Positions 21,001-24,000 of a stretch of 50,003 nucleotides of DNA are shown here, one piece after another; position 1 is the stretch's first letter, and each line of letters starts with the position of its first letter. The position numbers are program-made. The DNA is from a virus (Duplodnaviria > Heunggongvirae > Uroviricota > Caudoviricetes), in the IMG/VR virus record IMGVR_UViG_2609459850_000002; one strand, written 5' to 3'.

Positions 21001-24000
21001 CTCCACCCGGGCATTGCCGACACACCAGGCCATCAGGGGCTGGTCACCATGCACCAGCACCCCTTCAGCCAGTTTGCGCTCGGTGGTTTTAATGGCCCCG
21101 CCCAGTTTCCAGCCCTGGCTTATCCCCACCACAATTCCGTCGGGGATCCCGGCTTCCGCCAGTGAATCCAGAATCTGCCCCACCCCTGACGGGTCAATAC
21201 CGATATGGTCCAGTAACTCAGCCTCATGAATGCGACGCACATATTCCGCCACTTCCGCCGTGTCATCCCCGACACGCCGGACAATGGTCATATCTCCACA
21301 GGCAACAAGATCCTGAAACCGGGACGCCTCGCTCTTCCGTCGGACCACCGCGGTTTCATGCGCCCAGGCATGGCCCCAGCCCAGCCATTCGCGGGTCTCC
21401 CGGTCACGCCCAATCACATACATCCCCAGCAGATCATCCAGCCCTCCGCCGTCAATCCCCACCGTCACCACATCAGCACGACGCAGGATATCGTCCAGGC
21501 TGATACAACGGCCCTGCTCTTCCCAGAAATCAGCCCCCGCCCAGCGGTCAGAGCGCAGGGCAAGACCAATTTCCACATTGGCGTGTTTTGACATGAACCC
21601 CCGGAATGTCTCTTCACCGGCTTCCCGGGCTTTACGGTACTCCCGGTACAGAAAGGCCTCATCCACTGAATAGCCGAGATTCGGATTGACCATGGCGAGG
21701 TTTTCCATCAGCAGGTTAGCCCCGCTTTCCACCATTTCAGGAGGGTGTTCAAATATCACCGGCAGAAAGTGCGGATCATGAATTTTGCCGTCGCGCACAT
21801 CCCGGGCGTACTGCAGTTTCTGTCTGAACACCCCGGCGGGCGGTTCATTCGACTGGGTGGTCGTATACACCACAAACCCTTCCGGGCGGGAGGCAAGGCC
21901 GCCTATGGCTTCACGTAACATGTCCTCCGCCTTGCACTGCTTGCCAAACAGCCACAACTCATCAATCAGCGTACCCACGGACTTGATACCGGACACCGTA
22001 TTCGGATCGGCTGCCACCACCTTCAGGGTGGTGTCCGTCACTCGGTGGGTGATGGTCCGGATATGGGTCTGTACCTGGCAGAGGTCATCCAGATCATCGT
22101 CACGTCGTACCATATCCCGGGCAGGGTTGAAGGCGTTGGCCGCCACCTCCACAGTCGGGGCCAGAATCGTGTAACCCGCCGCCTGCCGCCAGTTCAGTAA
22201 CAGTGCAGTCATCATGATCCCCGCGGCCAGCGTGGACTTCGAGTTTTTCTTGGGGATAAGGATAAAAACTTCCTTGATATGGCGTACACCGGTCTGCGCA
22301 TCGTAGGAGCCAAACAGGGCCGCCACCAGGTCAAACACCCACGGTGCACAGGACTCCCCGAACGTAGGGCTACCAGGTGCATCCACAATCCGCAGTTGTT
22401 TAAAAATCGCCAGGGCATGTGCGGCCTCGTCCGGATAAATCGGATCCGGAATAATCGACAGCCCCTTTTTCAGGCGCTCTGCCCAGTCCGGGCAGGCTGT
22501 GCTCCATACAGGTATCATCCGTTGCCCTCATTATCGTTATTCACCACCAGTCGGGGGGGCGGTGGCACCGCAAAACGGTTAGCCGCTTTTTTCGCGGCAT
22601 CACCTTTTGCCGATTTTTTCCCGGTATCCCCTTTTTTATGGTGCGTGAACTGCGCCAGACGCCAGGCCGCATCCAGTGCCAGTTTCGGATCAATGCAGAG
22701 GTTTTCCACCAGGATCCGCCCCATGGCTTTCACCGGATCGGGAAGACCATCCTCCATATATTCAATACCAGGAGACATCACCGCGGACGGTGGCATCTCC
22801 AGATTGTTTTCGTCCGGCTGTGGTATTGCAGCCGCCTCACGGCGACGGGGTTTATCCTCCTGCTCTGATTTTTTCTGCCGGTAAACAGGAACCTCATCCA
22901 CCTCCACCGTCTCGCATTGTTTACGGGCTATAAACGCAAGCACCTCAGGATCTTTTGCCAGCTGCGAGCCTTTAACCCTGGCGGTCTTCGCCGAATAACC
23001 GGCGGCAATGGCTGACGCTGTTTTGTTTTTCCCGGACATGAGCGCCAGCGCAAATTTTCGTTTTTGCGTTGTCAGCACAGCCTCCTCCCGGGTCCAGAAC
23101 GCACTCAGCCGGGTATGGTTCAGCCCATTTTTCCCGGCGTCTCATGCCGCAAATGTTAACTGCTGCCTGGTTAACATTTGCTGAAAAAGCCTGTTAACAT
23201 TTTTTCCGCACAACAAACTGAATAATAAAGATAAAAACCGCAAAAATGCCCGGGCAGCCAGTTAACATGTTAACTGCCCTGAAACGGGAATTTTTTCTCT
23301 GCGTGAGAGGGGGCGCGGTGTCCAAAGCGATCGTTTTTTACGCCGGATGATACCCCCCCGGGGTCGGGTTACAGTCCGATGATGTCGTCCTCTCTGCCAC
23401 TACCTCCGGACACCTCCGGCAGCGTCGGGTCCGGCATATCACTCGCCGCTTCACGAGCAGACTTTTGTCGATGGCATTCGGTACAGAGCGTCCAGAGATT
23501 CGTCTCCTCATTACCACCACCGAACTGAAGTGCAATTCGGTGATCGAGTTCACTGTCACAGAGGTCAACCACACGACCACAGAGACGGCACTGCCCGGCG
23601 TCCCTGAGCCAGATATGACGCTTGAGGGAAACACGTGCACTGCCACTGACACGACGCTGTTCACCCTTCAGAATATTCACCCGTCGGGTATTCAGTGTTT
23701 TGATTCTGCTCTGGAGTGTACGAAGCTCAGCCATGTAAAATCCCCGTCATATGGCAATCAGTAAAGGAAATAAATATGTCATCGAAAAACCGTACCCGCA
23801 GAACCACAACCCGCAATATCCGTTTCCCCAATCACATGATTGAACAGATCAACATCGCCCTTGAGCATAAAGGGTCCGGTAACTTTTCAGCGTGGGTTAT
23901 TGAAGCCTGCAGGAGAAGGCTGGCAACAGATGCAACGCATCTGCGCCCGGCCAGCATGACAAATAACGAGAAATGAACGTTCGGTTACAGGAGCAGGTAC

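Follow-up and report, generated by a model that had tools for sequence, protein, structure and literature searches.

Five copies of the 8-mer GTTAACAT were found between the HNH endonuclease gene and the small terminase gene (terS) of a lambdoid prophage, contained in a stretch of 50,003 nucleotides taken from the IMG/VR virus record IMGVR_UViG_2609459850_000002 (Caudoviricetes) and hereafter called the window. These copies probably constitute the cosB-like recognition array of the prophage cos site and are candidate binding sites of the small terminase, TerS. Recognition by the terminase is the best-supported reading, because the ends of a near-identical phage have been mapped, the repeats lie on the terS side, their cores are invariant, and a concerted switch in their sequence tracks the helix-turn-helix of TerS. 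The array is an uncharacterised cosB-like terminase recognition array and belongs to a kind of mechanism that is already known, not new. Exact-string literature searches for the cos strings returned no description of it, this cos was not described in a preprint on capsid-forming satellites of the phage-inducible chromosomal island (PICI) type, and no annotated feature was found under the cos-region match among the matches listed.

Repeat array and cos core

The late genes are read from the minus strand in the order HNH, a 290-bp gap, TerS and large terminase (TerL). Within the gap, GTTAAC is present at 23155, 23170, 23193, 23261 and 23269, and the five GTTAACAT copies, present in both orientations, lie within 122 bp (23153-23274). 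Over the whole window GTTAACAT occurs eight times against 1.35 expected, a count reached in 0 of 100 shuffles, and five GTTAAC sites inside 125 bp have a probability of ~5e-6 when the 20 sites of the window are placed at random. On the minus strand, the repeat unit is ATGTTAAC followed by (T/C/A)(G/A)G. Copies a and b form a perfect palindrome, copy c stands alone (its position reads ATGTTAACTGGC in most relatives), and copies d and e form an inverted pair with arms of 12 nt that are 100% complementary (Table 1).

The original prediction had placed three or four copies of gcc(t/a)gttaacat between HNH and TerS, as plausible terminase or integration host factor (IHF) recognition elements of cos. 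The location was correct; the count was not, as five copies are present, and the palindrome and the inverted pair had gone unnoticed. The terminase part of that proposal is the reading retained here, and the IHF part was dropped: the GTTAACAT core is unlike the IHF consensus, and the repeats themselves are probably not what IHF reads. A speculative IHF-like sequence was located in the T-tract-rich spacer between copies b and c (Table 1). Since matches of that quality occur about once per 660 bp in the window, this one is not significant on its own. In the same region, the block ATTCA...GTT is kept among diverged cosB variants. The commonest extended form of the cos repeat, ATGTTAACTGG, was also seen once outside cos (37780-37790), between hokD and the next open reading frame (ORF); a single occurrence could be due to chance.

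The cut site was located by homology to Lys8385Vzw, a near-identical phage sequenced from virions and classified by PhageTerm as a 3' cos phage with the cohesive end CGCCCCCCCT (PMC7946995). The record of this phage ends in ...ggacaccgccccccct and starts with ctcacgcagagaaaaaattcccg..., also given as ctcacgcagagaaaaaattcccgtttcagggcagttaacatgttaac..., both ends being collinear with the minus strand of the window. The prophage would accordingly be cut at 23307/23308, with the left virion end beginning at 23307 and running toward lower coordinates. Counted from this putative cut, the repeat cores span +32 to +155 and terS starts at +230; no GTTAAC was counted in the window between the cut and HNH, the repeats lying downstream of the cut only.

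The putative cut falls in a conserved cos core, which was kept in both E. coli motif classes described below, in a satellite-like element and in 22 prophage loci of other Enterobacterales genera, where TerS is 33-49% identical. The G-run upstream of this core varies from ~6 to 10 G among otherwise near-identical relatives. Altogether, 1277 of 5426 complete E. coli genomes contain the cos region (at most seven copies each), as do many Stx1- and Stx2-converting phages; 94 phage records, mostly of such Shiga toxin (Stx) phages, carry it at 93-99% identity. For a closer comparison, 80 IMG/VR loci with TerS at least 93% identical were collected, resulting in 51 distinct gap sequences. All five repeat cores were invariant in 51/51 of these, and substitutions and indels were concentrated at the HNH end and in the G-run.

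More distant TerS homologues (33-49% identity) were found in prophages of Atlantibacter, Kluyvera, Serratia, Kosakonia, Enterobacter, Citrobacter, Erwinia, Pantoea and others. The first 50 residues of these homologues show high conservation, and their cos core (GGACACCGCGCCCCCTCTCACGCRCAGAAAAAATTCCC...) is conserved too. These relatives carry one GT(A/T)AAC-AT-GTTAAC palindrome, the homologue of copies a and b, which is present in almost all of them. In 20 of the 23 single-site loci tabulated, ATGTTAAC stands at the terS start and the gene begins ATGTTAACA inside the palindrome, the start codon therefore lying at the palindrome centre. In most of the loci L087-L108 and L004 the ATG was at the exact centre, ~47 nt from the cut; a further constraint, exerted by the DNA sequence, may thus act on the near-invariant Met-Leu-Thr start. 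The E. coli lineage of the window keeps the palindrome and adds ~183 bp with three further copies, and its terS restarts as GTGCTGACA ~190 nt downstream of the palindrome, behind a second GGAGG.

Repeat class and the helix-turn-helix of TerS

By their N-terminal domain, the E. coli TerS variants fall into two classes. Loci encoding A/T25, T32 and V35 (the window, L167, L174-L177 and 81 distinct IMG/VR variants) contain 4-6 GTTAAC copies. In the loci encoding E25, S32 and C35 (L171-L173, L360 and L361), all five copies read (A/G)TAAACAT / ATGTTTA(T/C) within the same architecture; GTTAAC is absent from these loci, and the CGCGCCCCCT core is the same as in the window. The copies retained in two partial loci, L168 and L178, are of the GTAAAC type. 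An IMG/VR search with the GTAAAC-type palindrome (17-mer) gave 22 hits, all unrelated and with no cos core or TerS nearby, and only GTTAAC-type loci came up when IMG/VR was scanned with GTAAAC-type and divergent TerS queries. Between the window and L171 the cosB DNA is 54% identical, with the copies at equivalent places. Among the single-site relatives of other genera, T32 was accompanied by (G/A)TTAAC in the non-coding half-site in 4/4 loci and S32 by (G/A)TAAAC in 16/17.

TerS matched Pfam Terminase_2 only (aa 2-57), without any Nu1-family hit. An AlphaFold2 model, built on a 22-sequence alignment, had a pLDDT (predicted local distance difference test) value above 93 in the N-terminal domain, with helices at residues 4-14, 19-25, 33-41 and 44-56. 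From these limits, residue 25 is the last one of helix 2, with residues 32 and 35 at the beginning of helix 3, which in a helix-turn-helix is the usual recognition helix. The best structural match was the DNA-binding domain of the SF6 small terminase (4zc3, 2cmp), with a template modelling (TM) score of 0.81-0.84, a root-mean-square deviation of 1.6-2.4 Å and ~30% identity. The small terminases of PaP3 and NV1 followed as weak matches (ranks 4-15, E ~0.7-2.4), and a profile search of solved structures returned the same families as the structural matching.

Among the neighbouring proteins, only the TerS helix-turn-helix changes with the repeats, which behave as sites for one protein whose specificity changed once, in the sister lineage. 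HNH and TerL were rejected as covarying partners since their degree of identity is not tied to motif class: in the GTAAAC-type locus L171, TerL is 96% and HNH 87% identical to the window proteins, and the TerL of the GTTAAC-type locus L167 is 84% identical. The window and the GTAAAC-type loci L360 and L361 encode an identical DUF3950 protein, WP_000095744.1, beside HNH. As the identical protein accompanies either repeat class, it is not the reader of the repeats; it was moreover absent from the single-site relatives, which keep the palindrome.

These data bear on the possibility that the repeats are bound by a protein other than TerS (IHF, Fis, HNH, the DUF3950 protein or a regulator using the palindromes as operators), which is considered unlikely. 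Dimeric regulators typically use operators of such shapes as the perfect 18-bp palindrome and the 12-bp inverted repeat, the divergently encoded DUF3950 protein is, judging by its sequence, possibly ribbon-helix-helix-like, and a weak promoter-like match made of the repeats is present on the plus strand (23171-23200). This match is, however, antisense to the late operon and reaches 9/12 only, neither HNH, TerL nor the DUF3950 protein follows the motif class, and a host factor leaves the lineage-specific concerted switch unexplained.

It is quite improbable that the repeats are non-functional relics, in which the ancestral terS start ATGTTAAC (Met-Leu-Thr) was spread by local duplication during the ~183-bp expansion. 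The terS start inside the palindrome of most single-site loci, and its restart downstream of the retained palindrome in the window, are consistent with duplication. Relics should decay, yet the five cores did not vary among the 51 gap sequences, and in the sister lineage they changed in concert at the same position within surroundings that are only about half identical. The copies are also found in both orientations, and the short ORF that opens at the old ATG shows no conservation, being 24, 14, 5 and 24 codons long in four cosB variants. As a hidden gene, this ORF (24 aa, hydrophobic, MLTGCPGIFAVFIFIIQFVVRKKC, from 23268 down to 23194 on the minus strand) was rejected; in view of these lengths it is probably not a gene.

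Under the preferred reading (recognition of the array by TerS), the HNH endonuclease and TerL would act as an HK97-style module that cuts the conserved cosN and leaves a 10-nt 3' overhang. The N-terminal domains of TerS (helix-turn-helix, Terminase_2, SPP1/SF6 G1P type) would read the half-site 5'-ATGTTAAC in the palindromic pair (+32 to +49), the single copy (+108) and the inverted pair (+127 to +159), with T-tract-rich, probably bent DNA separating the sites. The array would anchor the terminase on the chromosome end entering the capsid first. Bending of the spacer, or a role for IHF in it, is presumed, and the packaging direction is assumed by analogy with lambda and HK97. The module thus pictured seems to be a mosaic: cosN, HNH and TerL are of the HK97 type, the helix-turn-helix TerS is of the SPP1 type, and the sites are laid out much as in lambda.

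Several points weigh against this reading. The choice of TerS as the protein binding the repeats was deduced from sequence comparison, and the cut and the packaging polarity of this prophage rest on homology. The residue-32 rule has an exception in L099, where S32 occurs with ATTAAC. With a GTAAAC class as rare as 11 in 5426 E. coli genomes, the number of independent lineages backing the switch is small. Since cosB adjoins the 5' end of terS, the two may partly covary as a linked block inherited together; five parallel changes at one motif position are, however, left unexplained by linkage. Finally, TerS might make its actual contact, or a further one, at the conserved A-tract (+12 to +17), which is comparable to the HK97 site.

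A broader proposal is put forward tentatively, namely a modular specificity code in which the third base of the half-site GT(T/A)AAC would be determined by residue 32 of the TerS recognition helix, along with residues 25 and 35, and the cosB repeats would sort prophages and satellite-like elements with the same cosN into packaging groups. If true, this code would decide which of the lambdoid prophages resident together in a Shiga-toxin-producing E. coli (up to seven) can cross-package, and it would explain how same-cosN elements with their own TerS and AAGTTACAC repeats (L169 and L170) divert the helper machinery. With known sites and likely specificity residues, it becomes testable which Shiga-toxin prophages can package one another or mobilise satellites and cos plasmids. 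The natural switch from GTTAAC to GTAAAC with T32S, V35C and A25E is a ready-made test of DNA reading by helix-turn-helix small terminases.

The loci L169 and L170, from other E. coli genomes, are satellite-like, with primase-type genes (AAA_25, D5_N, DUF5906), small ORFs and a capsid-like gene. Their own TerS has 162 aa, is 47% identical to that of the window and is encoded at 1201-1689; a homologous cosN (ggacaccgccccccgtctcattcgtagaaaatttt) lies ~130 nt upstream of this gene, and two direct AAGTTACAC repeats replace the GTTAACAT copies. Such an element may use the cutting machinery of a helper with its own TerS and cosB.

GTTAAC elsewhere in the window and prophage setting

The original prediction had also pointed to a related motif at two distant promoter-proximal sites and suggested that GTTAAC sites could be methylation-sensitive. 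The motif, GGTTAACGTSAC, does occur twice, both times exactly, as GGTTAACGTGAC at 32498-32509 and GGTTAACGTCAC at 47063-47074. The two sites share 7/12 flanking positions, but so do at least four unrelated GTTAAC pairs, and by a binomial estimate ~5 such pairs are expected by chance among 380 comparisons. The first site precedes the ATG of a 65-aa ORF by 19 nt and lies ~100 nt downstream of the tR'-like terminator; no promoter-like site was found near it. The second lies within a dicB pseudogene fragment (reading ..VNWLT..), 59 nt upstream of rha, and is overlapped only by a weak antisense promoter-like match. In view of the chance-level flanks, the pseudogene context and the lack of a promoter-like site beside 32498, GGTTAACGTSAC was rejected as a related functional motif: both sites are present as predicted, but they are not demonstrably related, nor is promoter proximity demonstrable for either.

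For GTTAAC, a site of the HpaI type, the raw count of the window was 20 against 8.2 expected from dinucleotide shuffles. Once the cos cluster was masked and higher-order composition was used, 15 sites remained against 13.6-15.8 expected (third- and fourth-order Markov models), and a general over-representation was rejected. Outside cos, GTTAAC thus shows no excess, which on the side of frequency speaks against a link with methylation.

The prophage encodes an orphan beta-class N6/N4 methyltransferase, homologues of which, 80-95% identical and annotated as DNA methylase, were common in Stx phages in the phage search. Its best solved relatives have other specificities, and M.EcoGII had no entry among solved structures. 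The adenine methylase M.EcoGII is non-specific, is carried by a prophage and stays silent in lysogens (PMC5778455); the methyltransferase of the window resembles it in length, class and prophage setting. It is highly improbable that GTTAAC at cos, 32498 and 47063 provides methylation-sensitive control sites for this enzyme: although GTTAAC is palindromic and its raw count high, the methylation link has no support from the masked frequency or the distant sites, the functional unit at cos is ATGTTAAC, non-palindromic and ATGTTTAY in the sister phages, and the enzyme resembles a non-specific, lysogen-silent one.

The window corresponds to a lambdoid prophage located beside ompW and is 100% identical to an E. 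coli chromosome (strain 700462). Following the tR'-like terminator, the 65-aa ORF, the methyltransferase gene and then tRNAs and lysis genes are found in late-gene order. TerL is followed by portal, capsid and more head genes, one of which is annotated as HK97-gp10 family. In the PPompW prophages of O157 (phage records H88-H94), the cos-region match begins at about window position 23356, at the G-run. The annotation shows an IS110-family element, ISEc20, at this place, which seems to have inserted directly upstream of cos, where HNH would be expected. The coordinates of the features are listed in Table 1.

Table 1. Positions in the window of the cos site, the repeats and the genes discussed; + numbers are distances from the putative cut.
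Feature	Position	Strand	Remarks
Run of seven G upstream of the cos core	23353-23359		
Conserved cos core GGACACCGCGCCCCCTCTCACGCAGAGAAAAAATTCCCG	23285..23323	-	Contains the putative cut and the A-tract at +12 to +17 (23291-23296)
Putative cosN cohesive end, 10-nt 3' overhang CGCGCCCCCT	23308..23317	-	By homology to Lys8385Vzw
Copies a and b, perfect 18-bp palindrome CAGTTAACATGTTAACTG	23259..23276	.	+32 to +49
IHF-like sequence ATTCAGTTTGTTG, spacer between copies b and c (speculative)	23211..23223	-	One mismatch to WATCARNNNNTTR
Copy c, single, GTTAACAT (ATGTTAAC on the minus strand)	23193..23200	+	+108 to +115
Copies d and e, inverted pair GCAAATGTTAAC-n9-GTTAACATTTGC	23149..23181	.	+127 to +159
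terS, small terminase	22515..23078	-	187 aa, GTG start
TerS N-terminal DNA-binding domain (predicted)	22911..23078	-	aa 1-56, helix-turn-helix; covarying A25, T32, V35
terL, large terminase	20857..22518	-	PF03354 TerL_ATPase, PF20441 TerL_nuclease; Pfam families as in the HK97-type enzyme
HNH endonuclease gene, directly upstream of cos	23369..23734	-	PF01844
DUF3950/YlcI-family gene, divergent beside HNH	23776-23976	+	WP_000095744.1
Methyltransferase, beta-class N6/N4	31083-32132	-	349 aa, PF01555
tR'-like terminator	32609-32624		
Q antiterminator	32707-33528	-	

Comparison with known packaging systems

The layout of the array resembles lambda cosB (R3-I1-R2-R1, bound by gpNu1), as several short repeats of mixed orientation separate the nick site from the terS start, on what is presumably the first end to be packaged, and include a spacer of a presumably bendable or IHF type. 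In lambda, the cosB sites lie at about +50 to +170 and Nu1 at +191. The two motif classes also recall the lambda and phage 21 pair, sister phages that share cosN and differ in their repeats and in the helix-turn-helix residues of TerS. Differences are found in the ends, which are 12-nt 5' ends in lambda and 10-nt 3' overhangs here (as mapped in the relative) made by an HNH-dependent HK97-type TerL; in TerS, which belongs here to Terminase_2, without a Nu1-family Pfam hit; in the 8-bp core with two dyad-symmetric pairs; and in the IHF site, which is putative here.

With HK97 (gp1 TerS, gp2 TerL, gp74 HNH), the module shares the HNH-cos-terS-terL order, the 10-nt 3' overhang (here as mapped in the relative) and the TerL Pfam families, as well as a G-run ~40 nt before the cut and a TerS site (putative here) with an A/T-tract just downstream of the cut, on the terS side. 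The gp1 family is P27/Terminase_4, another Pfam family. A TerS of the gp1 type with a single A-tract site was not found here. In HK97, TerS recognises one 15-bp site (+15 to +29) through Arg7, Arg128 and A-tract shape (PMC11331095; Kala et al. 2014, cited therein). The terS gene of HK97 starts at +50; here the leader measures 230 bp, TerS is of the helix-turn-helix type and the five repeats are spread over 125 bp.

With SPP1/SF6 G1P, the Pfam family of TerS and the fold of its N-terminal DNA-binding domain are shared. In SPP1/SF6, repeated short boxes (pacL, pacR) and intrinsically bent DNA constitute the recognition signal. Packaging there is by headful (pac), with boxes on both sides of the cut; here cohesive ends, as mapped in the relative, are combined with repeats downstream only.

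PaP3 and NV1 are cos phages that likewise have a helix-turn-helix TerS, structurally similar to the model of the window TerS, as weak matches. They are unrelated phages that differ in cos sequence and end chemistry, and no repeat array was described for them (PMC7672466). The authors of that work proposed a ~20-bp cos sub-site whose outer ends are read by adjacent helix-turn-helix domains (PMC7672466), and by analogy this mode of reading would suit both the 18-bp palindrome and the n9 inverted pair of the array described here.

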